Source: an uncultured Chloroflexia bacterium (lineage in GTDB: Bacteria; Chloroflexota; Limnocylindria; Limnocylindrales; CSP1-4). From it: a DNA stretch of 64,000 nt. A program made the position numbers and the translations under genes. How positions within the stretch are numbered: the stretch's first letter is position 1; every line of letters starts with the position of its first letter. Where the stretch lies: assembly GCA_963813535.1 (NCBI GenBank), contig CAWEZH010000001.1, positions 32,001-96,000 of the forward strand. Reading direction: 5' to 3'. A model generated the notes under the pieces. The model was given only the letters and a program-made list of their open reading frames with translations, was not told where the DNA came from and searched no databases. Positions 1 to 13,832 of the stretch are shown one piece after another.

Positions 1-865
1 GGACCGCGCCCTCGGCCGCATGCAGCCCCTCGGCAGTGGTCGCCCGGACATCGACCTCGAGATCGCAGCGCTCGGCGACGACGTTGGGACGCGTCCCGCC
101 CGAGATCCGTCCGACGTTGACGGTGACCCCCGTCCAGCGGCCATTGAGCGCGTGCAACTCGCGGACGACCCGGGCAGCTTCGAGGATGGCGCTGCGGCCC
201 TTCTCCGGCTCGACACCGGCATGGGCCGCCCGGCCGTGGACGGTGAGGCGCGTATCGAGGATGCCCTTCCGGGCCGACACGATGTCGCCGTTGGCGCGGG
301 CGCACTCGAGGACGAGGCACGCGTCGACGTCCGCGGCCGCCGCGACGATGTGGTCGCGTGAGCTCGGCGAGCCGATCTCCTCGTCGGGGTTGGCGATGAA
401 CCTCAGTCGCTCGAACGGCAGCTCGCCGACCTCCGCGAGGATCGCCTGCAGCGAGTAGAGCCCCGCCAGCAGCCCGGACTTCATGTCGGTCACGCCTGGG
501 CCGTGGGCGATCCCCTCGTCGATCCGGAATGGACGGGCAGCCGCCGTACCCGGATCGAAGACGGTGTCCATGTGGCCGATCAGCAGGACCCGCGGCCGTC
601 CGGGGGTGCCGGTGAACGTCCCGACGACGGTCGCCCCGTACTGCTTCGACGGGTCGGGTCGTACGTCGACCTGCGCGCCGAGCCGCTCGAGGAACGCGCT
701 CGTCCAACGGCCGACCTCGTCGACACCATCGGGTGTGTACGACCCGCAGTCGATGTTCACGAGCCGCTCGAGGTCGGCCAGGTAGTCGCTGAAGTCGGCG
801 GAGATCGTCGCGCGCAGCGCGTCGAGCTCAAGCACCGCACCGGCTCCGGTCGTCTCGGTCGCCAC
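1..865 (-). CDS. M20 family metallopeptidase (glutamate carboxypeptidase-like); 3' end runs off the window
   Basis: Manual translation of the minus strand from GTG 865: ...LERLVNIDCGS...LLIGHMDTVF...GPGVTDMKSG...PDEEIGS (M20 metal-binding motifs). TAGACT lies 6 nt upstream of the start. Absent from the ORF track because it has no stop in the window. Confidence 0.88.
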   Translation of the reverse strand, partial: MATETTGAGAVLELDALRATISADFSDYLADLERLVNIDCGSYTPDGVDEVGRWTSAFLERLGAQVDVRPDPSKQYGATVVGTFTGTPGRPRVLLIGHMDTVFDPGTAAARPFRIDEGIAHGPGVTDMKSGLLAGLYSLQAILAEVGELPFERLRFIANPDEEIGSPSSRDHIVAAAADVDACLVLECARANGDIVSARKGILDTRLTVHGRAAHAGVEPEKGRSAILEAARVVRELHALNGRWTGVTVNVGRISGGTRPNVVAERCDLEVDVRATTAEGLHAAEGAV

Positions 866-910
866 GGCGGCAGTCTAGCGACCACGTCGTGTTGCTATCC
901 TGCCCGGACC

Positions 911-2680
911 GTGCGCGTGATCGAGATCCGCCTGCTGGAGGGACCCAACGTCTACCGGCTGGAGCCGGTGGTCAAGGTGGAACTCGCGGTCGGCCGGCGA
1001 CGGACCTGGTACGGACAGCGCGATCCCGGGCGCCACGCGATCGTCCGGCTCGGGGCGGCGGTCCCGGCGCGGGACTGGCCGGACCCCGTCGCCGCGATCG
1101 TGGCGTGGGTCCGTCGACTCCGCGCTCAGCACGACGAGGGGCGCGGCGGACTGGCCGTCCACCGGTCGTCAGACCCGGGCCACTGGATCATCACCTACCC
1201 GTGGAGCGGCGAGGAGCGGGCACGCCTCCTGACCGAGGCTGCCCTGGCGCTGGCGGATCGCGACGTCTCGCCCTCGCGGACCGCGCAGCTGACGGGTGCG
1301 CAGGAGCGGCTGCTTGCCCGCTGGACCGAGCGGATCGCAGCGGCACGAACGACGCCCCCGCCCTGGGTCCGCGACGCCGACCGGCGGATGCCCGCCGTCT
1401 CGATCTCCGGGACGAACGGGAAGTCGACGGTATCGCGGTTGATCACCCACATCCTGCTGCGGGCGGGCCAGCACGTCGGCATGACGACGTCGGACGGTGT
1501 CCTCATCGACGAGCGGATGATCGAGCCGGGCGACTGGACGGGACCGGGCGGCGCCCAGCAGGTCCTGCGCCGATCCGACATCGACGTCGCCGTCCTGGAG
1601 ACCGCCCGTGGCGGGATCGTGCTGCGCGGCATGGGCTACGAGTCGAATGACGCGTCGGTGCTGACCAACGTCTCGTCCGATCACCTCGACCTGCAGGGCA
1701 TCCATACGCTCCCCGAGCTGGCCGAGGTCAAGTCGACGATCTGCCGCGTGACGAAGCCGTCGGGCTGGGTCGTGCTCAACGGCGACGATCCGCTGGTCGC
1801 ATCGATCGCCCGGCGCGTCCGTGCCCACGTCGCCTACTTCTCGATAGCGACCGGCGCCTTGCCCTCCGTCGTCCGCCGGCACGTCCGTGGCGGTGGTCGG
1901 GCCTACGTGGTTCGCGACGGCTATCTCACCGAGCTCGAGGGTGCCCGGTCTTCACCCATCGTCGACATCGGGCGGGTGCCGATCACGATCGCCGGGCTCG
2001 CCCGCCACAACGTCGCGAATGCGCTCGCCGCCGCGGGTGGTGCGCGTGGGATGGGCGCAACCCTCGCCCAGATCCGCGACGGATTGACGGACTTCGCGCC
2101 GTCGGCCGAGCGCTCACCGGGACGCCTGAACCTGTTCCGTCTCGGAGCACGGGTGGTGATCGTCGACTTCGCCCACAACGAAGCCGGCATCGACGCCGTC
2201 ATGGATGTCGCGGAGGGCATCGCGGCCGGTGGCGCGGGCCGTGCGTCACCCATCACGGCGATCATCGGGACCGCCGGGGACCGGCCGGACGACACGCTGC
2301 GCGGAATCGGGCGGATCGCGGCGATGCGCGCCCAGCGGGTCGCGATCAAGGAGACGCGCAAGTATCTCCGCGGCCGAACGGCGCCCTCGGTCGTCGGCGA
2401 GCTCTTGGCGGGCGTGAAAGCCGGCGGCGGGACGACCGCCGACGTCCCGGTCTACCGCTCCGAGACAGCCGCCCTGAAGGCCGAGTTGAATGGGGCCGGT
2501 GGGGCGGCTACCGGGCACGGCCGCGGTACCGACGCTCCCCGGGTCATCGTCCTGATGTGCCATGAGGAACGCGACGAGGTCTTCGAGCTCCTGGCGTCGC
2601 TCGGCGCCCGCCCGGTCGACATCGCGTCCGAGCTCACCACCATCGTGCCGCGACTCCAGGAGCGCCAACGCCGCGGCTGA
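911..2680 (+). CDS. Cyanophycin synthetase-like Mur ligase (N-like domain + Mur ligase domain, no ATP-grasp domain)
   Basis: Starts VRVIEIRLLEGPNVY, like the CphA N-terminus LRILETRVLRGPNYW. Then SGTNGKST P-loop, VLETARGGI, TNVSSDHL, PGRLN, DFAHN and GDR, all matching the M domain of cphA at 9619-12495. The ~300-aa ATP-grasp region is missing. Start GTG 911 chosen within ORF 503..2680. Confidence 0.85.
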   Translation: MRVIEIRLLEGPNVYRLEPVVKVELAVGRRRTWYGQRDPGRHAIVRLGAAVPARDWPDPVAAIVAWVRRLRAQHDEGRGGLAVHRSSDPGHWIITYPWSGEERARLLTEAALALADRDVSPSRTAQLTGAQERLLARWTERIAAARTTPPPWVRDADRRMPAVSISGTNGKSTVSRLITHILLRAGQHVGMTTSDGVLIDERMIEPGDWTGPGGAQQVLRRSDIDVAVLETARGGIVLRGMGYESNDASVLTNVSSDHLDLQGIHTLPELAEVKSTICRVTKPSGWVVLNGDDPLVASIARRVRAHVAYFSIATGALPSVVRRHVRGGGRAYVVRDGYLTELEGARSSPIVDIGRVPITIAGLARHNVANALAAAGGARGMGATLAQIRDGLTDFAPSAERSPGRLNLFRLGARVVIVDFAHNEAGIDAVMDVAEGIAAGGAGRASPITAIIGTAGDRPDDTLRGIGRIAAMRAQRVAIKETRKYLRGRTAPSVVGELLAGVKAGGGTTADVPVYRSETAALKAELNGAGGAATGHGRGTDAPRVIVLMCHEERDEVFELLASLGARPVDIASELTTIVPRLQERQRRG

Positions 2681-2792
2681 TGGCGATCACGGCCACGCGG
2701 GCGAGCCTTGCGAGCGGCCAGCAGCGGGGCGCATGATGCGCGTGAGGCGCCAGTCGGACGATCCGGCACGCCACGACGGAGGGATCGGATCC

Positions 2793-2888
2793 GTGGAGCA
2801 GGTGATCGGCATCGCCCTGATCGTGATCGCGGCCCTGGAGATCGTATTCATCATCCGGGCCGTCCAGGCGAACATGGGTCGCGCCTGA
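2793..2888 (+). CDS. Small single-pass membrane protein (31 aa)
   Basis: GGAGGG RBS at 2778-2783, GTG start, hydrophobic VIGIALIVIAALEIVFII segment, host-like codon usage. Confidence 0.5.
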   Translation: MEQVIGIALIVIAALEIVFIIRAVQANMGRA

Positions 2889-2897
2889 TCGACCCCT

Positions 2898-2916
2898 CGC
2901 GCCGCGACGCGGCGCG
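2898..2916. terminator. GC hairpin between convergent genes (possible bidirectional terminator)
   Basis: CGCGCCGC-gac-GCGGCGCG, an 8-bp stem between stops at 2888 and 2919; no U tract. Confidence 0.35.
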
Positions 2917-2918
2917 CC

Positions 2919-4052
2919 TCAACGTTCGCGATCGGCCACCAGCAACCCGTCGTCGACGGACCAGCCGAGCCTGACCTGGTCCCCACGCTGGAGTTCGCGC
3001 CCGTGCGACTCGCGTGGTTCTCTGACCGAGATGCGCTGGCCGGTGCCGAGCGCGAGGTGGTACTTGGTGTCGGGCCCGAGATACAGGACCTCGTCGACGG
3101 TGGCATCGATGAGATTCGTCGTGCCGTCGCTGGCCGTCTCCCCGTCCACGATGCGCATCCGCTCGGGCCGCACGACCAGTGCCGCCGCCGTTCCCGACGC
3201 GAGCACGGCACGCTCCGCGGCCGCCCGCCCGACCCGCCAGCGCGTGTCGCCCCAGTCCATCCAGCCGCCGTCACCGCCGTCGACTTCGTACCGGCCGCGA
3301 AGGATATTCGATTCGCCGATGAAGTCGGCCACGAACAGCGACTCGGGTCGGTCGTACAGGTCCTCGCCCGTCCCCAACTGCTCGATCCGCCCGTCACTGA
3401 AGATGGCGATCCGGTCGCTCATCACGAGCGCCTCTTCCTGGTCGTGGGTCACGTAGAGCACCGTCGCGCCCAGCTCCCGGCTCACCCGGATGATCTCGAG
3501 CTGGAGCGATTCGCGAAGTTTCCGGTCGAGCGCCCCGAGCGGCTCGTCCATGAGCAGGAGGCGAGGCTCGAACACGACTGCTCGCGCAAGCGCGATGCGC
3601 TGCTGCTGCCCGCCGGATAGCTGCCGCGGATAGCGGTTCCCGAGGTCGGCCAGCTTCACGAGGCCCAGCGCATCCGCCACGCGCCGCTGGATCTCCGGCC
3701 GCGGCAGCCGGCGCATACGCAGCGGGAAGGCGACGTTGTCGGCCGCCGTCATGTGCGGGAACAGCGCGTAGTTCTGGAAGACCATCCCCACGTCGCGGCG
3801 GTACGGCGGCACGCGGGTCATGTCCGTGCCGTCGATCTCGATGGAGCCGGCAGTGGGGCTCATGAAGCCCGCGACCATCCGCAGGGTCGTGGTCTTGCCC
3901 GAACCCGACGGGCCGAGCAGCGTCAGGAACTCCCCTGGGAGGACATCCAGGTCGATGCCGTCGACCGCGACCGCGCTGCCGAAGACCTTGCGCAGGCCGC
4001 GCAGGACGAGCGCCGGATGCTGGGTGCCGGTCGGCGCGCTAGTGCCGGTCAT
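2919..4052 (-). CDS. potA: Polyamine-type ABC transporter ATP-binding protein (PotA-like)
   Basis: GPSGSGKTT Walker A, LSGGQQQR signature, LLLMDEP Walker B, YVTHDQEEA, C-terminal TOBE-like region. ATG 4052 overlaps the upstream permease stop. Confidence 0.9.
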   Translation of the reverse strand: MTGTSAPTGTQHPALVLRGLRKVFGSAVAVDGIDLDVLPGEFLTLLGPSGSGKTTTLRMVAGFMSPTAGSIEIDGTDMTRVPPYRRDVGMVFQNYALFPHMTAADNVAFPLRMRRLPRPEIQRRVADALGLVKLADLGNRYPRQLSGGQQQRIALARAVVFEPRLLLMDEPLGALDRKLRESLQLEIIRVSRELGATVLYVTHDQEEALVMSDRIAIFSDGRIEQLGTGEDLYDRPESLFVADFIGESNILRGRYEVDGGDGGWMDWGDTRWRVGRAAAERAVLASGTAAALVVRPERMRIVDGETASDGTTNLIDATVDEVLYLGPDTKYHLALGTGQRISVREPRESHGRELQRGDQVRLGWSVDDGLLVADRER

Positions 4053-4846
4053 TGCGCCGGGGCCTGTCGCCGGACGACGACCAGCAGGAGCAGCAACACC
4101 GTCGTCACGACCAGCAGGGTGGTGGAGACCGCGGCGACGGTGGGGTCGACGGCCTGGCGGACCTGCTCCCACATCTCCACGGGCAGCGTCCTGAACCGCG
4201 CCGACGTCATGAAGATCGCGACGACCACCTCATCCCACGACGTGATGAACGCGAAGATCGCGCCCGTGAGGACGCCCGGCAGGATGATCGGTAACGTGAT
4301 GTGGGCGAATGTCCGGCGCGGATCGGCGCCGAGGTTCGCGGCGGCGAGCTCCAGGTTGCGATCCATCGTCCGGAGCGATGTGCTGACGGCCACGGCGACG
4401 AACGGCAGCGCGAGCGCGGTGTGGGCGATCACCAGCCCGGGCAACGACCCGCTCAGTCGCCACTGGACGAACAATCCGAACATGCCGATGGCGATGACCA
4501 CGACGGGCACGATCAGCGGCGACAGGGCCAGGGCGTTGACCAGGGTCTTGCCACGGAAGCGTCCGCGGTTCAGGCCGAGCGCCACCAGCGTCCCGAGGAC
4601 CGTGGCGAGGATCGCGGTCAGGACCGCGACCTGGAGGCTGTTGACGATCCCGGTCGACCACTGCCGATCGGTCAGCATCTGCTCATACCACTGGAAGGTG
4701 AAACCCTCCGGCGGGAAGCTCAGGATCCGTGCCTCGGTGAAGCTCATCGGGACGATGACGAGCGTCGGGGCAAGCAGATAGAACACGGTCAGCGCGCCAA
4801 GGGCCGCCATGAGGATCCGCCGCGGCTGACGCCACGAGTCACTCAT
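4049..4846 (-). CDS. potC: Polyamine-type ABC permease (PotC-like)
   Basis: Multiple TM helices, EAA-like loop LELAAANLGA, SWDEVVVAIF, TLPV. Confidence 0.88.
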   Translation of the reverse strand: MSDSWRQPRRILMAALGALTVFYLLAPTLVIVPMSFTEARILSFPPEGFTFQWYEQMLTDRQWSTGIVNSLQVAVLTAILATVLGTLVALGLNRGRFRGKTLVNALALSPLIVPVVVIAIGMFGLFVQWRLSGSLPGLVIAHTALALPFVAVAVSTSLRTMDRNLELAAANLGADPRRTFAHITLPIILPGVLTGAIFAFITSWDEVVVAIFMTSARFRTLPVEMWEQVRQAVDPTVAAVSTTLLVVTTVLLLLLVVVRRQAPAQ

Positions 4847-4849
4847 CGA

Positions 4850-5737
4850 TCAGTCCTCGACCACGCTGCCGAAGACGTCCTGCAACTTGACCGCCCGGGA
4901 CGCCACGAAGAGGATCACCAGCGTGATCCCGACCAGCAGCACGCTCATCGCCGTCCCGAAGCCCCAATCGAGGCGTTGCTGGATCTGCTGCACGATGAGC
5001 TGGCTGATCATCTGGTCCCTCAACCCGCCGAGCAGCGCCGGCGTGATGTAGAACCCGAGCGCCAGGATGAATACGAGGAGGCAGCCCGCCAGGACGCCGG
5101 GAAGGCTGAGCGGGACGAAGATCCGAAGGAACGCCGACATCGGCGAGGCACCGAGGTTCGCCGCGGCACGGCTGAACTCGGGGTCGATCCTGCGCATCAC
5201 GGCATAGAGCGGCAGCACCATGAACGGCAGCAGGATGTGGGACATCCCGACGATCACCCCTCCGGTGGTGCGGATCAGAGTTAGGGGCTCGCTGATGACG
5301 CCGAGATCGAGCAGGAAGCGGTTGATGATTCCCGTGTCGCGCAGAAGTACCTGCCACGCGAAGGTCCGCACCAGCAGGCTTGACCAGAACGGGAGAAGCA
5401 CCGCGATCAGCAACAGCCCGGCCAGCCTGCCGGGCACGATCGTCATCAGGTAGGCGAACGGATAGCCGATCACGAGGCACACGACCGTCGCCAGGACGGC
5501 GATCCAGAACGTGTTGAGTAGGACCCGGACGTACGCCTCCTCGGCGAAGAAGCGTTCGTAGTTCGACAGCCCGGCACCCACCGGGTCGGTGACGCTCCTG
5601 ACGCTCATGGCCACGAGGGGCACGAGGAAGAACGCCACGAGGAACACCATCGCCGGCACGACCAGCCACGACCAACGGTCGCGGCGAGCGCCGATAAGGC
5701 CCGACCACGGGCGGCGGGCCTTACCGGTCGTCGACAT
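4850..5737 (-). CDS. potB: Polyamine-type ABC permease (PotB-like)
   Basis: LPFWSSLLVRTFAW, LPFMVLPLY, AAANLGA, YITPALLGG. Confidence 0.88.
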   Translation of the reverse strand: MSTTGKARRPWSGLIGARRDRWSWLVVPAMVFLVAFFLVPLVAMSVRSVTDPVGAGLSNYERFFAEEAYVRVLLNTFWIAVLATVVCLVIGYPFAYLMTIVPGRLAGLLLIAVLLPFWSSLLVRTFAWQVLLRDTGIINRFLLDLGVISEPLTLIRTTGGVIVGMSHILLPFMVLPLYAVMRRIDPEFSRAAANLGASPMSAFLRIFVPLSLPGVLAGCLLVFILALGFYITPALLGGLRDQMISQLIVQQIQQRLDWGFGTAMSVLLVGITLVILFVASRAVKLQDVFGSVVED

Positions 5738-5763
5738 CGGGTGCGCCTGTCTCGACTAGCGGA

Positions 5764-6906
5764 TCAGGACGCCTTCCAGGCCTGCCACGCGGCATCGATC
5801 TCGTCGAAGTTCTCGCCGAGATACGTGTCGTCGAAGTAGGCCGAGTTTTCGTCGGCGTTAGTCACCGACAGGTCGTTGACCATCGCCGGATTGGCTGTGG
5901 AGTTCGTGTTCGTCGGGCCGTACGGGATGAACTCCGACGGGCCGGCGTTGTTCGCCGCGCACGCCGTGTACGCGATGAACTTCATGGCCGCATCCTTGTT
6001 GGGCGAGCCCTTCGGCACGACCAGGTAGTCGGCGGTCACGATCTGCTGGTTCCATTGCATCTCGACCGGCTTGTTGTCGATGTTCTTGGCGCTCCAACCG
6101 CGCCCATTCCAGATCATCGACATCGCCACCTCGCCTGAGCCGATGAGCTCCTGCGACTCGGCACCCGACGCCCAGAAGACGATGTCGTCCTTGATGGTGT
6201 TCAGCTTCGCGGTCGCCCGCGGCAGGTCGAGCGGGTAGAGGTCGGCCGGCTTGACGCCGTCCGCCATCAGGGCGAACTCGAACATGCCGCCCTCGGAGTA
6301 GTCCCACGCTCCCCGCTTGCCGGGGATCTTGGTGGTGTCGAAGTAGTCGGCCCAGCCCTCGGGCACCGCGCCGGCGGTGGCTTCGGTGTTATACGCGAGG
6401 ACGACGCCGTACGTGATGTCCGGGATGCGATAGTCGGTGATGCCGAGGTCGGCGTTGAGCTCGTCCTTCGGGATCAGCGTGAAGTCAAGGGGCTCGAGCA
6501 GGTCCTTGTGGACATCGAGCCCGAAGTCGTTTCCGACGTCGACGACGTCCCACGTGACCTGGCCAGCTTCGACCTGGGCCTTGATGGTCGCGTTCGACGA
6601 GTTTTCGTCCTCGGTGAACTGGACGCCGGTCAGCTCCGTGTATGGCTCGAGCCATGCCTTGCGCTGGGCTTCCTGGTACACGCCGCCGAACGAGACGAAC
6701 GTGAGTGTCACGCCCTCCTGACGAGGCGGGTTGCAGGCCGCAGACGCCGGCGACGCCCCCGCGGACTCGCTGGCCGCCGGCTCGCTGGCGGCTGGTTCTG
6801 AGGCCGCCGGCACCGACGCCGCGGGCGACGCCCCACCTCCTCCCGAACAACCCGTGACGATCGCGGTGATCGCCAGGAACGCGATGACGGTCGTCGAGCG
6901 ATGCAT
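5764..6906 (-). CDS. Polyamine-type ABC substrate-binding lipoprotein
   Basis: AGGAGG RBS, lipobox VTGC, (PAASE)n linker, SFGGVYQEAQ, ALMADGV, WNGR motifs of the PotD/PotF-like SBP family. Confidence 0.85.
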   Translation of the reverse strand: MHRSTTVIAFLAITAIVTGCSGGGGASPAASVPAASEPAASEPAASESAGASPASAACNPPRQEGVTLTFVSFGGVYQEAQRKAWLEPYTELTGVQFTEDENSSNATIKAQVEAGQVTWDVVDVGNDFGLDVHKDLLEPLDFTLIPKDELNADLGITDYRIPDITYGVVLAYNTEATAGAVPEGWADYFDTTKIPGKRGAWDYSEGGMFEFALMADGVKPADLYPLDLPRATAKLNTIKDDIVFWASGAESQELIGSGEVAMSMIWNGRGWSAKNIDNKPVEMQWNQQIVTADYLVVPKGSPNKDAAMKFIAYTACAANNAGPSEFIPYGPTNTNSTANPAMVNDLSVTNADENSAYFDDTYLGENFDEIDAAWQAWKAS

Positions 6907-7031
6907 GCTCGTGCCCTCCTCCAAGGCGAAGCGCGGGCGACCTCCACCGCCCGGTCCGGTGCATCGTAGTCCGCGGCGCAAGGCCCGACCAAGCGTGTCC
7001 ACGGTCGCCCTTGGTGCGAAGATGGTCGGTG

Positions 7032-8690
7032 ATGGGCGGACTCGTCCTCGTCAACGGTCGCGTATCCACCGCACGGCCCGGGGAGCCGCCGTTCAGCGGC
7101 GGTCTCGCGATCGTCGGCGACCGGATCGTGGCGGTCGGTGGAGACAGTGCCGTTCGGGTGATGGCACCACCCGAGGCACAGCAGATCGACGTCGCCGGCC
7201 GGACGATCGTCCCGGGCTTCGTCGACCCGCACAACCACCTTGCATTCACCGGGGCGGAGCTCGCGTCGGTCGACGTCCGCTATCCCGGCGTGGCGTCGAT
7301 CGCCGATATCGTCGCCCGCATCGCAGACGCCGCGGAACGGACGCCCGATGGGACGTGGATCCGCGCCGTCGGCATGAACCCGGAGCAGTTCGCGGACGGC
7401 CGGCTGCCGACGCGCTGGGACATCGACGAGGCCACGCGCGTCCATCCGGTGCTCGTCCAGCACATGAGCGGTCACCACGCCCTCGCAAACAGCCTAGCCC
7501 TTGAGCGGCGTGGCCTGGCCGACTCCGCCGGCGACCCCGAGGGTGGTCACCTCGTGCGCGACGACCGCGGCCGCATCACGGGCTACTGTCTCGATGCGGC
7601 CCAGGCCCTGGTCGTGCCCATCGCGGTCGATATCGGTCACCACGGGCCGGGCTTCCACGACGACGCACCGCTGGAGGAGATCGTCGGCGACATCGACCGT
7701 GGCGCCCGCGCCTACCTCGCCGCCGGCATCACCTCGATCGTGGACGCCCAGGTCACGCGTCGCGAGCTGGAGGGCTATCGCCGTGCGCGGGAGCGCGGCA
7801 TGCTCGGCGTGCGGGTGACGGCCATGCCGATCTCGTCCCAGCTCGAGGAGTACACCGCCATCGGTCTGAACGGACGGTTCGGCGATGACCGGCTGGCGAT
7901 CGGTCCGATGAAGTTCTACGCGGACGGTGCGCTGACGGGTGGGACGGCGGCATTCTCCGCACCGTATGGCGCGAACGGCGAGTTCCAGGGCTCGCTGTAC
8001 TGGCGCTCGGAGGACGAGTTCCGCGACGCCATCCGCAGCGCACACATGGGCGGCTGGCAGATCGGCGTCCACGCGCAGGGCGATCGCGCGATCGACCGCG
8101 TCCTCGACGCGTACGAGCCCGCGCTCGAGGCGCAGCCGCGTGACGACCACCGCCACCGGATCGAGCACTGCGGCGGCCCGCGACCGGACCAGCTCGAGCG
8201 GATGGCGAGACTCGGCGTCATGGCCGTCGGCCAGCCTCGCTACTTCTGGGATGCCGGCGACGCCTGGCTCACGGCCATCGACACGGAGCGCGTCCAACGC
8301 CTCCAGCCCTATCGCGAGATGAGCGACGCCGGGGTCCGGTTCGCGTTGTCCAGCGATGCGCCGGTCGCGTCATACAAGCCACTCGACACCATCTGGTCGG
8401 CGGTCACGCGGACGACGGTCGGCGGCGCGATCGTCGGGCCGGACCAGGCCCTCACCGTGGAGGAGGCGCTGCGTGCCTGCACGTTCGACGCGGCGGCGTC
8501 CTATTTCGCTGACGACCGGCTCGGCTCGCTCGAGGTCGGCAAGCTCGCCGACGTCGTGGTCCTCGACGGTGACCTGTTCGCGACGCCGATCGACCGACTC
8601 GGCGACGTCGGCGTCGACCTGACCCTCGTCGGTGGGGAGATCGTCTACCGCGGTCCGCGCTGGAGGGCGACGAGCGACAGCATCTCGTAG
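7032..8690 (+). CDS. Metal-dependent amidohydrolase (YtcJ-like, amidohydro_3)
   Basis: PGFVDPHNH, KFYADG, VHAQGD, RIEH, SSDAP, GSLEVGKLADVVVLD. Divergent from the ABC operon; its 3' end overlaps the agmatinase 3' end. Confidence 0.88.
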   Translation: MGGLVLVNGRVSTARPGEPPFSGGLAIVGDRIVAVGGDSAVRVMAPPEAQQIDVAGRTIVPGFVDPHNHLAFTGAELASVDVRYPGVASIADIVARIADAAERTPDGTWIRAVGMNPEQFADGRLPTRWDIDEATRVHPVLVQHMSGHHALANSLALERRGLADSAGDPEGGHLVRDDRGRITGYCLDAAQALVVPIAVDIGHHGPGFHDDAPLEEIVGDIDRGARAYLAAGITSIVDAQVTRRELEGYRRARERGMLGVRVTAMPISSQLEEYTAIGLNGRFGDDRLAIGPMKFYADGALTGGTAAFSAPYGANGEFQGSLYWRSEDEFRDAIRSAHMGGWQIGVHAQGDRAIDRVLDAYEPALEAQPRDDHRHRIEHCGGPRPDQLERMARLGVMAVGQPRYFWDAGDAWLTAIDTERVQRLQPYREMSDAGVRFALSSDAPVASYKPLDTIWSAVTRTTVGGAIVGPDQALTVEEALRACTFDAAASYFADDRLGSLEVGKLADVVVLDGDLFATPIDRLGDVGVDLTLVGGEIVYRGPRWRATSDSIS

Positions 8691-9622
8691 GCCAGGTTCG
8701 CGGCGAGGAAGGCGGTCTGACCGGCCGGGTCGTAGGCCGGGATGACCTCGACGACGTCGAACCCGACGAAGTCGATGTCGGTGAGGCGCCGGACGATCGC
8801 CAGCGCGTCATGCGAGGAGAGGCCGCCGGGCTCCGGCGTCCCGGTCCCGGGCGCGAATGCCGGGTCGACCACGTCGATGTCGTAGCTGATGAAGGCCGTG
8901 GCGTCACCGACCCGCTCGCGGATCCGCTCGGCGGTGGCTACGGGCCCGATATCGAGGACCTCCTCGGTGGTGAGGTACTCGAGACCGAGCTCATCGCGCA
9001 GGTCTGTCCAGTCATCCTTGTCGTACACCGACCCGCGCAGCCCGACCTCGATGGAGTGGCCGACGTCGACCAGGCCCTCCTCGATCGCGCGGCGCATCCA
9101 CGTCCCGTGGTTGTACTTCTCGCCGAAGTAGCTGTCCCAGGCGTCGGTATGCGAGTCGAAGTCGATCACCGCGACCGGGCCCCGCGAGCGGGTCGCCCGC
9201 AGGTGCGGCAACGTGCACGCGTGATCGCCTCCGATGAGGAGCGGCACGACACCGGCCTCGACGATCGGCGCCACGGTCTGCTCGATGGCCTCGTAGCTGC
9301 GCTCGATGTAGCCCGGCACGATCGACACGTCGCCGTAGTCGACGCAGGACAGGATGTCGAACGGCTTGACATCGAGATTGGCGTTGTAGGGCCGCAGCAT
9401 CACGCTGGCCGCGCGGACGCCGTTCGGCCCGAAGCGCCCGCCGGCGCGGTACGTCACGCCAGTGTCGAACGGCACCCCGACGATCACCAGATCGACGTCT
9501 TCGAGCGTGCGAACGTAGGGCAGTCGGGCGAAGGTCGACGGTCCGGTGAAGCGCGGGCTCTTGAGCGAGTCCTCCGGGCCATAGCGCGGCGGCCCGGCGC
9601 GCCGCGCACTCCGCGTGCTCAT
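8645..9622 (-). CDS. speB: Agmatinase / ureohydrolase family
   Basis: GVPFD, GGRFGP, GGDH, DSHTD, SYDIDVVDPAFAPGTGTPEPGG, FDVVEV. ATG overlaps the cphA stop (ATGA, 9619-9622). Exact substrate not certain. Confidence 0.85.
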   Translation of the reverse strand: MSTRSARRAGPPRYGPEDSLKSPRFTGPSTFARLPYVRTLEDVDLVIVGVPFDTGVTYRAGGRFGPNGVRAASVMLRPYNANLDVKPFDILSCVDYGDVSIVPGYIERSYEAIEQTVAPIVEAGVVPLLIGGDHACTLPHLRATRSRGPVAVIDFDSHTDAWDSYFGEKYNHGTWMRRAIEEGLVDVGHSIEVGLRGSVYDKDDWTDLRDELGLEYLTTEEVLDIGPVATAERIRERVGDATAFISYDIDVVDPAFAPGTGTPEPGGLSSHDALAIVRRLTDIDFVGFDVVEVIPAYDPAGQTAFLAANLAYEMLSLVALQRGPR

Positions 9623-12495
9623 CCCTCCGGCGCCTCGAGCTCGCCCGGATCGGCGAAGGCCGTGCCGCCACGCGATGCGCCGGTCGCCGACATCGCCTCG
9701 CGATAGACGGCGATCGCGTCGTCGACGCAGCACACGACGAGGTCACCCGGCATCGCTCGACGCAGCGCCGTACGGACGGCGGTCATCTCGTCGAGGACCT
9801 TGTCGGCCCTGCCCACGCGGGCCTCGCCCGCGGTCGTTGCCGAGCGGACGCCCTCGATGACATTGGTCGCCGTCTCGCCGGGTGCCCGACCTCGAAGGTT
9901 CTTGTCCTCGCGCACGATGATCTCGTCGAACGCGCCGGCCGCGATCGCGCCGTATCGGCGCTGGTCGTCGTCGCGCCGGTCGCCCGGGATGCCGAGCACG
10001 CCGATCGCCCGACCCGATCGGGCGGCGGACTTGCTCGCTCCGATCCGACCCGCCTTGGTCTGCGGCTCGACCATCATCCGCTGGACGAAGTCGGCCAGCT
10101 GGCGCATGCCATCGACGTTGTGGCAGTAGTCGATGACGACACGCACGCCGCCGACATCGAGCAGGTTGAGCCGCCCCGGCGCCTGGAAGAACGACGTCGA
10201 GAACGTGCGCAGACCCTGTCGGATGTCGTGCAGATGCGCGCCCGATGCCCACGCCGCCGCTGCGGCGGCCAGCGCGTTCGCCACGTTCATCCGCGCCCGG
10301 CCACCGAAGGTCGCCGGGATGAGGTGGGTGTAGAGGACCGGCATCTTGCGGCTCCCGAGCCGGAGCACGATCAGCTCGCCCTCCTTGGTCGGCTCGAGAC
10401 AGAACGCGGCATTGCCCCGTGACGTGTGACCGTCCACCCGGTCGAAGCCGTCTTCACCCTTCTCGGTCGCCATCGAGAACAGCACGACGCGGCCCGCACA
10501 GTGGCGGCCCATCCGGTAGACATGGCTGTCGTCGGCGTTGAGGACGGCCGTCCCGGAACGGGGAACTGCCTCGACCACCACCCCCTTCACGTTGGCGAGC
10601 TGACCGATCGAGTCGATACCGCCCAGACCGAGGTGGTCGCCGGTCACGTTGGTCACCACGGCTACGTCGTTGCGGTCGTAGCCGAGCCCTTCGCGCAGGA
10701 TGCCGCCGCGCGCGACCTCGAAGACCGCCGTATCGACCGTCGGGTTCTGCAACACCATCTGGGCCGACTTGGGCCCCGACATATCGCCCTTCTTGATGAG
10801 CCGGCCGTCGACCACGATGCCGTCGGTCGAGGTCATGCCGACCCGCCTGCCCATCAGCTTCAGGATGTGGGCGATCATCCGCACGGTCGTCGTCTTGCCG
10901 TTCGTGCCGGTCACCGCGAGGATCGGGATGCGCGACGGGTTGCCGGGCGGGAACAGGCCATCGATGACCGGCCGGGCGACGTACTGCGGCTCGCCTTCGG
11001 TCGGATGGGTGTGCATCCGGAACCCGGGCGCGGCGTTCACCTCGACGATCGCCCCGCCGGTCTCGCGGACGGGGGTCGTGATGTCGGGGCAGATGAAGTC
11101 GATTCCGGCCACATCGAGCCCGACGATCTGCGCCGCCGTCTCGGCGATCTCGACATTGTCGGGGTGGGCCTCGATCGTGCGGTCGATCGAGGTCCCGCCG
11201 GTCGACATGTTGCCGGTCAGCGCGAGCTTGATCCACGTGCCGTCGGGCGGGACGTCATCGAGGGCGTAACCCTGGACGCGGACGAGCTCCTCGGCCGCCT
11301 CGTCGAGCTTGATCCGGGTCAGCACCTTCTCGTGCCCGATGCCCCGGCGCGGGTCCTGGTTGGCAAGATCGACCAGCTGACGGACAGTGCGCTCGCCGTC
11401 GGCGGTCACGCTCGCCGGCACTCGCTCGGCGATGGCGGCGACCTTGCCGCCGATCACCAGGCAGCGGTAGTCGTTGCCAGCGACGTAGGTCTCGATCACC
11501 ACGTCCCCGGAGCGGCTCTGGGCGAGCGCACCAGGGAAGGCGGCGCGGACCTGCGCCTCCGAGCGCAGGTCGAGGTGGACGCCGCGGCCGTGGTTGCCGT
11601 CGAGCGGCTTGAGCACGCATGGGAACCCGAGTCGGGTCGCGACGCTGACGGCCTCGTCCTCGGTCGTGACGACGTCGGCGCGCGGGACCGGCAATCCGGC
11701 GCTGTCGAGCAGCCGGTTGGTCAGGCTCTTGTCCGAGGCGACGTCGACACCGATGGCCGATGTCTTCGAGGTCATCGTCGCCCGGATGCGCTGCTGGTGG
11801 ACACCGTGGCCGAACTGGACGAGCGAATGGCGGTCGAGCCGGATGAAGGGGATGTCGCGGCTGACCGCCTCGTCGATGAGCGCCTGCGTCGAGGGACCGA
11901 ACGCCTGTCGCTCGGCCAGCCGGATGAGACGCTCGAGCTCGTTCGCGAAGTCGAAGAAGAAAGCCTCGTCGTCGGGCGCGACCAGGTGGTTGACCAGGGC
12001 GACGGCCATCTTGCCGGCCTCGAGGCCGACCGCCTCCTCCTTGTACTCGTAGATGCAGTTGTACTGGCCGTGCACGCCCGCCGAGCGGGTCTTCCCGTGC
12101 CGAACGTCGGTGCCGGCAAGGTTCTGGAACTCGAGTGCGATGTGCTCGGCGATGTGGCCGGCCCACGTGCCCTCCTGGAGCCTCGTGACGAAGCCACCGC
12201 GACGGCCCAGCGAGCAGGCGTGGTCCTCGAGCGTGGGCAGGAGCGCGACGAGGGCGTCGCTGAACCCCGGGAGGCGGTTCGACGGGAACTCCTCGAGGAT
12301 GCCGAGGTCGACCAGCATCCGGATGACCGGCTCCCGCGCCCAGTAGTTCGGCCCGCGCAGCACGCGGGTCTCCAGGATCCGCAGCGTCGGCAGCGGCGTC
12401 GTGGGGACCGCCGTGGCAGGTGGCGTCGCCGACGCCGCGGTGCGCTTGGCGCGCGGGCGCTTGGGCTTGGCGGTCGGCTCGGCCGTCTCGGTCAC
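9619..12495 (-). CDS. cphA: Cyanophycin synthetase CphA1
   Basis: N domain with Cx19HxxEH (CSLGRRGG...GHIAEH); ATP-grasp (KPLDGNHGRGV, NMSTGG, EVNAAPGFRMH); Mur ligase (VTGTNGKTT, EVARGGILREGLG, DHLG, PGRLN, DYCHN). AGGAGG precedes GTG 12495. Confidence 0.96.
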   Translation of the reverse strand: MTETAEPTAKPKRPRAKRTAASATPPATAVPTTPLPTLRILETRVLRGPNYWAREPVIRMLVDLGILEEFPSNRLPGFSDALVALLPTLEDHACSLGRRGGFVTRLQEGTWAGHIAEHIALEFQNLAGTDVRHGKTRSAGVHGQYNCIYEYKEEAVGLEAGKMAVALVNHLVAPDDEAFFFDFANELERLIRLAERQAFGPSTQALIDEAVSRDIPFIRLDRHSLVQFGHGVHQQRIRATMTSKTSAIGVDVASDKSLTNRLLDSAGLPVPRADVVTTEDEAVSVATRLGFPCVLKPLDGNHGRGVHLDLRSEAQVRAAFPGALAQSRSGDVVIETYVAGNDYRCLVIGGKVAAIAERVPASVTADGERTVRQLVDLANQDPRRGIGHEKVLTRIKLDEAAEELVRVQGYALDDVPPDGTWIKLALTGNMSTGGTSIDRTIEAHPDNVEIAETAAQIVGLDVAGIDFICPDITTPVRETGGAIVEVNAAPGFRMHTHPTEGEPQYVARPVIDGLFPPGNPSRIPILAVTGTNGKTTTVRMIAHILKLMGRRVGMTSTDGIVVDGRLIKKGDMSGPKSAQMVLQNPTVDTAVFEVARGGILREGLGYDRNDVAVVTNVTGDHLGLGGIDSIGQLANVKGVVVEAVPRSGTAVLNADDSHVYRMGRHCAGRVVLFSMATEKGEDGFDRVDGHTSRGNAAFCLEPTKEGELIVLRLGSRKMPVLYTHLIPATFGGRARMNVANALAAAAAAWASGAHLHDIRQGLRTFSTSFFQAPGRLNLLDVGGVRVVIDYCHNVDGMRQLADFVQRMMVEPQTKAGRIGASKSAARSGRAIGVLGIPGDRRDDDQRRYGAIAAGAFDEIIVREDKNLRGRAPGETATNVIEGVRSATTAGEARVGRADKVLDEMTAVRTALRRAMPGDLVVCCVDDAIAVYREAMSATGASRGGTAFADPGELEAPEG

Positions 12496-12544
12496 GCTCG
12501 CCCTCCTGCGCACACGGGATGGTCCGTCAGTGTACGGCGATACG

Positions 12545-12979
12545 TCAGGCCAGCCGGACCCGGCGTGGCGTGATCCGAACAGGCACCGAAAAGTCGCGTG
12601 CCACGTCCGCCACCTCCATCTCCCAATGCGCGTGCGGCTCCAGGTACTTGGCGTGGTACGCGCGATGCCGATCGGATGGCGGTACGGACGGATCGATCGC
12701 CGCGGTGCCTTCGATGACCAGGTAGTGGTCGCCGTAGGGATCCGACTGGAGGTGGAACGAGACCTGCGGGGAGTGCGCGAGGTTGCGCAGCTTGGCCGTG
12801 TCGGGCTGGCTGTAGAACAGGATCGTGTCGTTCTCCTGCAGGAAGGAGATCACCGACGATTGCGGTCGACCATCCGGCGCGACGGTCGTCAGCCAGGCGA
12901 CGACGTCCCTCCCAAGGTGTTCGCGAGCCCAGACGGCGTCGGCGCGTCGCAGGGCACTGTCCAGCGGGCTCTCGTCCAT
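12545..12979 (-). CDS. PPOX-class (split beta-barrel) putative F420-dependent oxidoreductase
   Basis: VAWLTTVAPDGRPQSS, YSQPDTAKLRNL..SPQVS, IEGTA: typical PNPOx-like/FDOR pattern. Confidence 0.75.
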   Translation of the reverse strand: MDESPLDSALRRADAVWAREHLGRDVVAWLTTVAPDGRPQSSVISFLQENDTILFYSQPDTAKLRNLAHSPQVSFHLQSDPYGDHYLVIEGTAAIDPSVPPSDRHRAYHAKYLEPHAHWEMEVADVARDFSVPVRITPRRVRLA

Positions 12980-12995
12980 CCGGTCTCCTCGACGG

Positions 12996-13832
12996 TCAGC
13001 TCGAAGCGGCTTCGCCGCCGGGCAGCGCGTGGAGCGTCGGCGCGAGCACGCGCTCCCGTCGCTGGAGGTCGAACCGGTAGCCCGCCGGGAGCGAGTGCAA
13101 GACGACGCCGCTGATCATCAGCGGTCGGTGGCCCTTGACCTCCCACGCATCGGTCTCCGAGCGGGCCCCGTCCACGACCGTGATCGAGCCGCGCCCGATG
13201 ACCTCCATGATGTGGTCTGGTCCGACCACGCCGGCGGTGTCCTCGTCGACACCGAGGCCGAGCAGGGACGGGTTCTGGGCGATCAGGCTGAGCAGCCGCC
13301 CGAGCCGGTTCCGCTGCTGGAAGTGCTGGTCGATGATCACGCCGGGCAGCACCCCGAGCCCGGCGGCGATCTGCGCCATGCGATGTTTCGGTGTCGCACC
13401 GGACGCGCCGAAGGCGATCATGTGGCTCGACATCGCCGAGGCGCCCGCGCTGGTGCCGGCGACGACGGCGCCCTTGCGGAACTGCTCCAGGACGGCGTCG
13501 GCCAGGCGTGTCCCGCCGATGATCGACGACAGCCGGAGCTGGTTGCCACCGGTCATGAACACGCCTGTCGCATCACGCAACGCGAGGCCCACGGTGTCGT
13601 CGTTCGCCTGGGCGCGCGTGACGGCGTGGATCGCTCGGACCTTGCTCACGCCGAGCTCGCCGAGGACCTGCTTGTAGCGCTCACCGGCCAGCTCGCCGAG
13701 CGACGAGGCCGTCGATATGACCGCGACGGTCGCATCGCGACCGCCGGCGAGGCTGGCGAAACGGCTGAGGATGACGCGGTCGCGGACCTTGTCCTCCGCG
13801 CCGCCGATGATGATGACGTGTCCGTCGCTCAC
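12996..13832 (-). CDS. cphB: Cyanophycinase (intracellular)
   Basis: IIGGAEDK, FMTGGNQLRL, GTSAGA (Ser), DQHFQQRNRLGRL (His), GVDEDTA (Glu); no signal peptide. Confidence 0.95.
   Translation of the reverse strand: MSDGHVIIIGGAEDKVRDRVILSRFASLAGGRDATVAVISTASSLGELAGERYKQVLGELGVSKVRAIHAVTRAQANDDTVGLALRDATGVFMTGGNQLRLSSIIGGTRLADAVLEQFRKGAVVAGTSAGASAMSSHMIAFGASGATPKHRMAQIAAGLGVLPGVIIDQHFQQRNRLGRLLSLIAQNPSLLGLGVDEDTAGVVGPDHIMEVIGRGSITVVDGARSETDAWEVKGHRPLMISGVVLHSLPAGYRFDLQRRERVLAPTLHALPGGEAASS

Follow-up and report, generated by a model that had tools for sequence, protein, structure and literature searches.

A conserved cyanophycin synthetase paralogue without the ATP-grasp domain is linked to cphA1 in Chloroflexota and Actinomycetota

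Introduction

Synthesis of the nitrogen-storage polymer cyanophycin is treated in textbooks as a one-enzyme process, in which the ATP-grasp (G) domain of CphA1 extends the poly-Asp backbone and the Mur-ligase (M) domain adds Arg to the side chains of Asp. In this paper we describe a second CphA-type gene from a 64,000-nucleotide stretch of DNA (hereafter the window; contig CAWEZH010000001.1, positions 32,001 to 96,000) of an uncultured Chloroflexota bacterium of the order Limnocylindrales, which also carries a complete cphA1. The product, here called the N+M protein, has a CphA-type N-terminal (N) domain and a complete M domain and has no G domain; it belongs to the CphA superfamily, in which its architecture is new, and is neither CphA1 nor CphA2. 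It is probably an unstudied extra enzyme of cyanophycin metabolism, because such genes were found only in genomes that also have the normal cyanophycin genes.

In CphA1 the N domain can hold a primer-generating site, Cx19HxxEH, which is reported to be present in 83% of CphA1 (PMC9262961). A full-text search of the literature, in which supplements were left unopened, found no description of a CphA paralogue that consists of N and M domains and lacks G. The nearest item was a preprint on pseudomurein (10.1101/2022.11.30.518518), which groups two sequences tagged MurE and MurF with CphA and assumes that CphA originated when an ATP-grasp gene fused with a MurE/F-like one.

Methods

Profile-profile comparison (hhalign) was made between 11 N regions of N+M proteins and 19 full CphA1 sequences, and the AlphaFold model of the N+M protein was built from 23 family members. 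Residues of 42 N+M domains were compared with those of 21 CphA1 M domains. Trees were calculated from M-domain slices of 65-74 sequences, using Mur ligases from the same genome as the outgroup.

Genomes in the three phylum samples (903 in total) were at least 80% complete, and matches were counted at E<=1e-30. The CphA1 profile TIGR02068 was applied to 11 genomes, the window's own and 10 others; elsewhere the term cphA1-type denotes an M-only match in a frame of at least about 800 amino acids, or in a shorter frame where a contig end cuts it.

Results

The N+M gene (Table 1) lies in a region of about 71% G+C. Position 911 was taken as its start because the proteins of relatives begin, in the alignments, with M-R-[LV]-[IV]-E-I-R; a longer frame from 503, which overlaps the divergent gene of the M20 peptidase (2-865, minus strand) in antisense, was unsupported and was rejected. 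The ratio of non-synonymous to synonymous substitution rates (dN/dS, Nei-Gojobori) was 0.08-0.22 in seven of seven orthologue comparisons, a set from which 3 further loci not captured by the search pattern were omitted, and in an earlier run with three orthologues the N and M parts taken separately gave similar values. The gene is under purifying selection, and from the intact frame and these ratios it is therefore a working gene and no remnant. A scan of 700-3100 found no promoter-like site and one terminator-like match, which lies within the N+M gene on the opposite strand. Metatranscriptome contigs from 3 runs in 2 studies fall inside the gene, one of 151 nucleotides (1554-1704) with no differences, one of 209 (2068-2276) with 4 and one of 271 (1928-2198) with 8, and cover is low across the whole 14 kb; such short contigs, from RNA libraries that possibly contain DNA, are only a hint of transcription.

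A preliminary description of this locus, made from the DNA letters, had noted a protein that begins like CphA, goes directly to an intact Mur-ligase module and lacks both the ATP-grasp domain and the Cx19HxxEH site. Each of these points holds. The motifs that it named are present in the translation (SGTNGKST, LETARGG, SSDHLDL, SPGRLNLF and VDFAHNEAG), and BLASTP aligns the CphA1 of the window with the N+M protein in two segments, residues 528-891 against 159-504 at 39% identity and residues 44-83 against 1-40 (E 4e-5). The best-kept part of the N domain is its start (E5, R7, L9, G11, P12, N13, Y15, P19 and K22), while in profile-profile comparison the whole N region matches the CphA1 N domain with a probability of 97.1% (E 7e-11, 142 columns). 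Neither Cys nor HxxEH occurs in residues 1-160 of the N+M protein; the window's CphA1 has the full motif, and the stretch that bears it in CphA1 is shortened in the N+M protein, with all four residues gone.

The N region passes straight into the P-loop of the M domain. Pfam gave no match to any ATP-grasp family (E<=0.01) and none to PF18921, the Cyanophycin_syn N domain, and no Mur-ligase N-terminal domain was among the Pfam matches listed for the protein. Mur_ligase_M (PF08245) was found at residues 165-376 with 75.6 bits (cut-off 24) and Mur_ligase_C (PF02875) at 404-480 with 25.4 bits, under its cut-off of 28.4; structural matches to MurE, MurD and MurC (Z 23-25.6) confirm the fold. The match to TIGR02068 spans model positions 474-837 only, at 376.5 bits against a cut-off of 850, and the other Mur families scored 104 bits (MurE), 35 (FolC) and 25 (PgsB); on the MurE profile TIGR01085 the protein reached 91.1 bits against a cut-off of 257.3. 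Identity between CphA1 M domains and the N+M protein is 39-47%.

Among solved structures the best relatives are the CphA1 chains 7LG5 and 7TXV (E 8e-76, chain residues 485-841), with MurE far behind. The AlphaFold model has a mean predicted local distance difference test (pLDDT) score of 89 and a predicted template modelling (pTM) score of 0.90, with low confidence only at residues 30-44 and 531-539, and all top Foldseek matches to it were CphA1. With VIA-align, 506-508 of the 589 residues were superposed on CphA1 chains (Z 36-41.5, root-mean-square deviation 2.9-4.7 Å), and the alignment runs from model residues 1-567 to chain residues 1-872 and skips the G domain; the best MurE match had a Z of 25.6 over 362 aligned residues. 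Because the N and M domains overlay CphA1 as one body, they pack against each other in the model as they do in CphA1. Profile and model agree with the domain assignment made earlier, including the view of the protein as the mirror image of CphA2, that is, a CphA1 minus its G domain and with its M domain complete; from the missing G domain it also follows, as had been proposed, that the protein would not polymerise on its own.

Residues that bind ATP and Mg in TeCphA1 are K499, T500, T522 and E558, and R731 and H748 are described in the lid of the M domain (Mlid) of the same enzyme (Miyakawa et al., PMC9427784), while the double change D585A/H586A is reported to inactivate the M domain of SuCphA1 (Sharon et al. 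2022, PMC9262961). The counterparts of all of these are present in the N+M protein (K171, S172, T190/T191, E230, D257, H258, R405 and H422) and are invariant or nearly so in alignments of 23-63 family members, the position of S172 being Thr in most relatives. Judged by these residues, the M domain looks catalytically competent.

A word-index search returned 4034 proteins at E<=1e-10, and the best 120 of these were all 577-638 amino acids long, 78-96% identical and mostly from metagenome-assembled genomes of Limnocylindrales/Chloroflexota. An exhaustive search returned 1218 cluster representatives at E<=1e-30, many of them full-length (527-585 amino acids, 36-48% identity), and full-length matches across phyla had 34-49% identity. 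The relatives are named "cyanophycin synthetase" by JGI and "Mur ligase family protein" by NCBI, a usage that can distort surveys of cyanophycin producers. Two types were distinguished. The window protein is of type A, with a length of about 530-600 amino acids, the start E-x-R-x-L-x-G-P-N, the motif Y-L-R-G-R and full-length similarity, and full-length members also occur in Thermomicrobiales, Sphaerobacteraceae, Kribbella, Terrabacter and Nocardioides. Type B starts with xSRRLTGPNL, differs from type A in its N-domain sequence and is carried by Thermoanaerobaculia, Nannocystis, Plesiocystis pacifica, Planctomycetaceae, Luteimonas, Steroidobacteraceae and Rubrivivax. The family was seen in all in Chloroflexota, Actinomycetota, Acidobacteriota, Myxococcota, Planctomycetota and some Gammaproteobacteria.

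In the window's genome there is one complete cphA1, one N+M paralogue and a separate MurE elsewhere. The complete cphA1 about 7 kb away, as the preliminary description had put it, is separated from the N+M gene by 6.9 kb and scores 1127.5 bits on TIGR02068. In the genus the N+M gene is present in 22 of 24 relatives (in one piece in 20 and in two pieces in 2), the two without it being 59% and 69% complete, and it usually lies 0.3-14 kb from a cphA1-type match, on which it converges. A full cphA1 above the TIGR02068 cut-off was found in all 10 checked N+M genomes, from several phyla, at 0.2-8 kb from the N+M gene in nine and on a separate contig in one. These comprise five type A genomes, in all of which the distance is 0.2-8 kb, and five type B genomes, in four of which the type B gene is downstream of cphA1 on the same strand, immediately after it in three. 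In three type A loci and one further locus the gene order by Pfam was N+M and then cphA1 and cphB on the opposite strand.

The co-occurrence of N+M homologues with cphA, an expectation of the preliminary description, was borne out in the phylum samples, where none of the 818 genomes without a cphA1-type gene carried one. When the N+M gene was present, it lay almost always no more than 12 kb from cphA1. Among 251 Chloroflexota, 33 had a cphA1-type gene, of which 24 also had type A, 6 had a paralogue with a 542-amino-acid frame elsewhere in the genome and 3 had cphA1 only; no match of any kind was found in the other 218. All 30 cphA1-positive genomes among 301 Actinomycetota carry both genes, on one contig and within 12 kb in 29 of them, and the remaining 271 had no match; the count is 29/29 without one unpublished genome (G382). 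Among 351 Pseudomonadota, searched with a type B query, the N+M gene was found in 2 of 22 cphA1-type genomes, one of the two being the genome around which the sample was centred, and in 0 of 329 others. The six Chloroflexota with the 542-amino-acid frame (G093, G103, G139, G183, G227 and G259) are large genomes of one family (f30), in which the paralogue matches the M domain only, at 35-38% identity, and lies far from cphA1.

In trees of M domains the CphA-type sequences stand apart from Mur ligases (support 97/96), and the earlier placement of the protein with CphA, as opposed to MurE, FolC or CapB, is upheld by the trees as by the profile scores. The 21 CphA1 M domains all fall in a single clade (97 in a quick tree and 100/99 in a careful one), and types A and B both branch outside it. 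The window protein groups with type A in both trees, on a branch that is weak in the careful tree (83/35). Types A and B are joined in the quick tree (85), whereas the careful tree places type B as the sister of CphA1 (89/77), over a branch 0.043 long, and rooting on the long Mur-ligase branches is unreliable; since the two trees place type B differently, monophyly of all N+M proteins was not adopted. We read these M-domain sequences as three deep lineages, CphA1, type A and type B, whose order is unsettled between the trees. Because the lineages are deep, the N+M gene does not appear to be a recent truncation, and by its sequence the neighbouring CphA1 is not its recent parent.

Three other G-less proteins (P0236, P0268 and P0259) fall inside the CphA1 clade; their N domain is canonical, with PF18921 scores of up to 144.9 bits, and their M domain is complete. 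They look like younger, independent losses of the G domain or artefacts of gene calling. Variants of the N+M form were also seen. P0142 (972 amino acids), with two Mur_ligase_M and two Mur_ligase_C matches, starts with a CphA-type M domain, which is followed by what resembles the N region of type B and then by another M domain; it is apparently a tandem fusion of two M-type modules. In two Terrabacter loci (L027, 8001-10187, and L030) the N+M frames run about 170-190 codons past the end of the family alignment, and with 728 amino acids in the L027 protein a C-terminal extension is suggested in the Terrabacter N+M proteins.

The columns that differ cleanly between CphA1 and N+M proteins are only a handful. 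CphA1 has the motif E-D-x-D/N-L-R-G-R, in which E869 and D870 (each at 95%) and, two residues on, the D/N (81%) are not kept in the N+M proteins; these have instead an extra Tyr before the invariant L-R-G-R in 91-94%, and in type A the residue that precedes this Tyr is basic in 71%. At S583 of CphA1 (86%) the commonest residue in N+M proteins is Gly, with Ala in 45% of type B, and the second Arg of the CphA1 motif G-D-R-R (71%) is replaced by Thr, Pro or Ser. In E. coli MurE the D-N-P-R motif holds the incoming diamino acid at its far end, and the MurE of the window's genome reads T-D-E-D-P-R-G-E at the equivalent place in the same alignment. A substrate complex of the CphA1 M domain is said to be described by Sharon et al. 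2021 (Nat Chem Biol). Because acidic residues suited to a guanidinium group are lost, the comparison, by analogy with MurE, suggests that the incoming substrate may not be recognised in the way that CphA1 recognises arginine.

Around the N+M gene, conservation across phyla extends to cphA1 and cphB alone. The M20 gene, which adjoins the N+M gene in 10 of 10 close loci (tblastn, L012-L021), was not found by tblastn or Pfam in more distant loci from Thermomicrobiales and actinobacteria and was rejected as a conserved partner; its product may be a dipeptidase, specific to this lineage, that acts on products of cyanophycin breakdown. The agmatinase and the polyamine transporter were likewise rejected as lineage-specific. 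Agmatinase and polyamine genes, on which the preliminary description's suggestion of agmatine or putrescine as the amine would rest, stand between the two cph genes in only some relatives of the genus; in many others the cph genes are about 0.3-1.2 kb apart, which therefore leaves no room for them, and the block of transporter and Amidohydro_3 genes (2919-8690) looks like a lineage-specific insertion. The genes cphB, cphA1 and agmatinase are arranged head to tail on one strand (8645-13832, minus). The listed agmatinase frame and the 3' end of cphA1 share about 115 nucleotides, so the true start of the agmatinase is probably further in; an agmatinase in a cyanophycin operon would tie the polymer to agmatine and putrescine metabolism.

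At one type B locus, in a metagenome-assembled genome of Thermoanaerobaculia (L098:7717-11345, minus strand), the type B gene stands beside a 603-amino-acid CphA variant that has a canonical N domain, is without TIGR02068 positions 229-389 (the ATP-grasp core) and stops after the core of the M domain (Mcore). A 577-amino-acid protein follows, the C-terminal half of which is a cyanophycinase-like peptidase S51, and a normal cphA1 is found elsewhere in that genome.

Table 1. Coordinates of the N+M gene, its domains and motifs, and neighbouring genes in the window
Feature	Position	Strand	Basis and remarks
N+M (G-less) cyanophycin synthetase paralogue gene	911..2680	+	589 amino acids, GTG start; open reading frame, Pfam, TIGR02068, BLASTP
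Diverged CphA-type N domain (residues 1-155), without Cx19HxxEH	911..1375	+	hhalign, alignments, model overlay
CphA-type Mur-ligase (M) domain; Mcore ~159-400, Mlid ~401-589	1385..2680	+	Pfam, TIGR02068, BLASTP, AlphaFold, Foldseek
P-loop G167-T-N-G-K171-S172	1409..1426	+	putative ATP/Mg binding, by equivalence to TeCphA1 K499/T500 (PMC9427784)
D257-H258 of DHL motif	1679..1684	+	equivalent to SuCphA1 D585/H586 (PMC9262961)
K480-E-T-R-K-Y485-L-R487-G-R489, counterpart of MurE DNPR	2348..2377	+	alignments
M20 metallopeptidase (glutamate-carboxypeptidase-like), cut by window edge	2..865	-	divergent from N+M gene, 45-nucleotide spacer
PotA-like ATPase of polyamine-type transporter	2919-4172		above TIGR01187 cut-off
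Polyamine-type ABC transporter permeases	4850-5737 and 4049-4846		
Polyamine-type ABC transporter binding protein	5764-7002		
Amidohydro_3 gene	7011-8690	+	
Agmatinase (arginase family), directly downstream of cphA1	8645..9733	-	Pfam; TIGR01230 223.7 bits, cut-off 174.3
cphA1, complete (N with Cx19HxxEH, G, M)	9619..12513	-	TIGR02068 1127.5 bits, cut-off 850; Pfam
cphB, cyanophycinase (peptidase S51), upstream of cphA1	12996..13832	-	Pfam; TIGR02069 262 bits, cut-off 126.6

Discussion

The reading that we favour, with somewhat more confidence than doubt, is that the N+M protein is an M-type ligase that would act in trans on cyanophycin-type chains made by CphA1. By homology, a stand-alone ATP-dependent ligase of this type would use ATP to phosphorylate a carboxylate, which would then be joined to an incoming amine through an amide or isopeptide bond. 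That carboxylate would most likely be the beta-carboxyl of an Asp that is still undecorated, on a chain of cyanophycin or poly-Asp lying in the groove between the N and M domains. As there is no ATP-grasp domain and so no extension of a backbone, the enzyme would have to work in trans on the chains of the neighbouring CphA1, and the outcome would be that side chains are filled or finished, or that a residue other than arginine is added. It is the polymer as substrate, the action in trans and the identity of the amine that we infer.

Within this reading, a donor other than arginine is a tentative proposal; the preliminary description had likewise raised a different amine, or hetero-oligomers with CphA1. 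With the acidic pocket lost and Tyr and basic residues gained, a neutral or acidic amino acid would fit better than a cation. It is possible, though doubtful, that cyanophycin in Actinomycetota and many Chloroflexota is the work of two enzymes, with the chain built by CphA1 and a second, non-arginine residue attached by the N+M protein, to give a natural heteropolymer; such a polymer would have been missed because cyanobacteria, Acinetobacter and Tatumella have been studied as systems with CphA1 only. A corollary is that the N+M form may be the older architecture, with CphA1 arising from a later insertion of the ATP-grasp domain.

Several points weigh against a trans-acting ligase for cyanophycin chains. 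The neighbouring CphA1 has an M domain that is itself intact, so an Arg ligase in trans would seem superfluous. That the N domain is kept is no proof of polymer binding, and the N domain of CphA2 is reported to be relevant to stability and solubility only (PMC10273328). The interpretation of the motif change leans on an analogy with the DNPR motif of MurE. Genomes within a phylum are related, so the co-occurrence counts overstate independence, and in most genomes cphA1 was recognised by the broader cphA1-type definition. In Pseudomonadota the N+M gene accompanies so few of the cphA1-positive genomes, and the cyanobacterial matches covered the M domain only; the protein is therefore accessory and not required for cyanophycin synthesis.

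The same architecture could serve an extra, free-standing Arg ligase, which would attach arginine as the CphA1 M domain does and repair undecorated Asp or raise the capacity for side-chain addition. The identity of 39-47% to CphA1 M domains, the retention of all catalytic residues, the N-M arrangement preserved in the model and the strict linkage to cphA1 and cphB would all fit it. We consider it unlikely, given that E869 and D870 are lost and a family-specific Tyr is inserted, and that the deep split from CphA1 and the co-retention in 30/30 Actinomycetota speak for a role that is not redundant.

It is improbable that the substrate is a small molecule, such as beta-Asp-X dipeptides, short primers or a metabolite from cyanophycin degradation. 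Mur-type ligases usually take small acyl substrates, the N domain could have been kept for structural reasons only if the report on CphA2 (PMC10273328) applies here, and the neighbours in the window are amino-acid and polyamine genes (M20 peptidase, agmatinase and polyamine transporter). Those neighbours, however, are lineage-specific, with cphA1 and cphB as the only cross-phylum partners, and the CphA1 of the window has an intact Cx19HxxEH primer site, so that an extra source of primers is not obviously needed.

Still more improbable is a mainly non-enzymatic or regulatory partner in CphA1 oligomers, for example one that replaces a protomer and tunes chain length, priming or granules. In the model the protein is shaped like a CphA1 protomer minus G, its gene is co-located with cphA1, and CphA1 and CphA2 are described as obligate oligomers with M domains at the interfaces (PMC9262961, PMC10273328). 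A pure scaffold, however, would not need a P-loop, Mg ligands, DHL, R405 and H422 that are invariant across phyla, and W672, the Trp reported to hold the SuCphA1 tetramer together (PMC9262961), aligns with an Arg here.

That the protein is an ordinary peptidoglycan, folate or poly-gamma-glutamate ligase (MurE/F, FolC or CapB) near cphA by chance, or a decaying fragment, is scarcely credible, since for all that some databases call its relatives "Mur ligase family protein" it scores far higher on the M region of TIGR02068 than on MurE, FolC or PgsB, its genome has its own MurE, the trees place it with CphA, and the frame is intact, with full-length relatives in several phyla and the low dN/dS given above.

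The presence beside cphA1 of another conserved enzyme, whose active site is intact, points to an unrecognised step, which would be side-chain finishing, a second type of side chain or control of the polymer. Actinomycetota and Chloroflexota are two of the most abundant soil phyla, and as cultured Kribbella and Terrabacter carry the gene pair, the question is directly testable. The answer is of relevance to the engineering of cyanophycin of altered composition.

Compared with MurE and other Mur ligases (PDB 1E8C, 4C12/4C13), the N+M protein has the same central ATPase and C-terminal domains, the P-loop and the Mg ligands, and R487 corresponds to the Arg of the DNPR-type motif of MurE; it differs in having no UDP-MurNAc-binding N-terminal domain, in reading R-K-Y-L-R at the DNPR place, and in its structural Z of 25.6 against MurE, as compared with 36-41 against CphA1. 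Type B proteins share the N+M architecture and the linkage to cphA1 with the type A protein of the window, and differ in N sequence and in the phyla that carry them. CphA2 is likewise a reduced CphA paralogue found alongside CphA1 and CphB, with an N domain that lacks the peptidase site; however, CphA2 is described as having an active G and a truncated, inactive M domain (PMC10273328), the reverse of the N+M protein, and as cyanobacterial, whereas N+M proteins were seen in other phyla. With CphA1 (TIGR02068; PDB 7LG5, 7LGJ, 7LGQ, 7TXV, 7WAE) the protein shares homologous N and M domains, the same M catalytic residues, the N-M packing in the model and the cphA1-cphB gene neighbourhood. Unlike CphA1, it is without the entire G domain and the Cx19HxxEH site, its N domain is too diverged for PF18921, its DNPR-equivalent motif lacks E-D...D/N and has gained a Tyr, and it branches outside the CphA1 clade.

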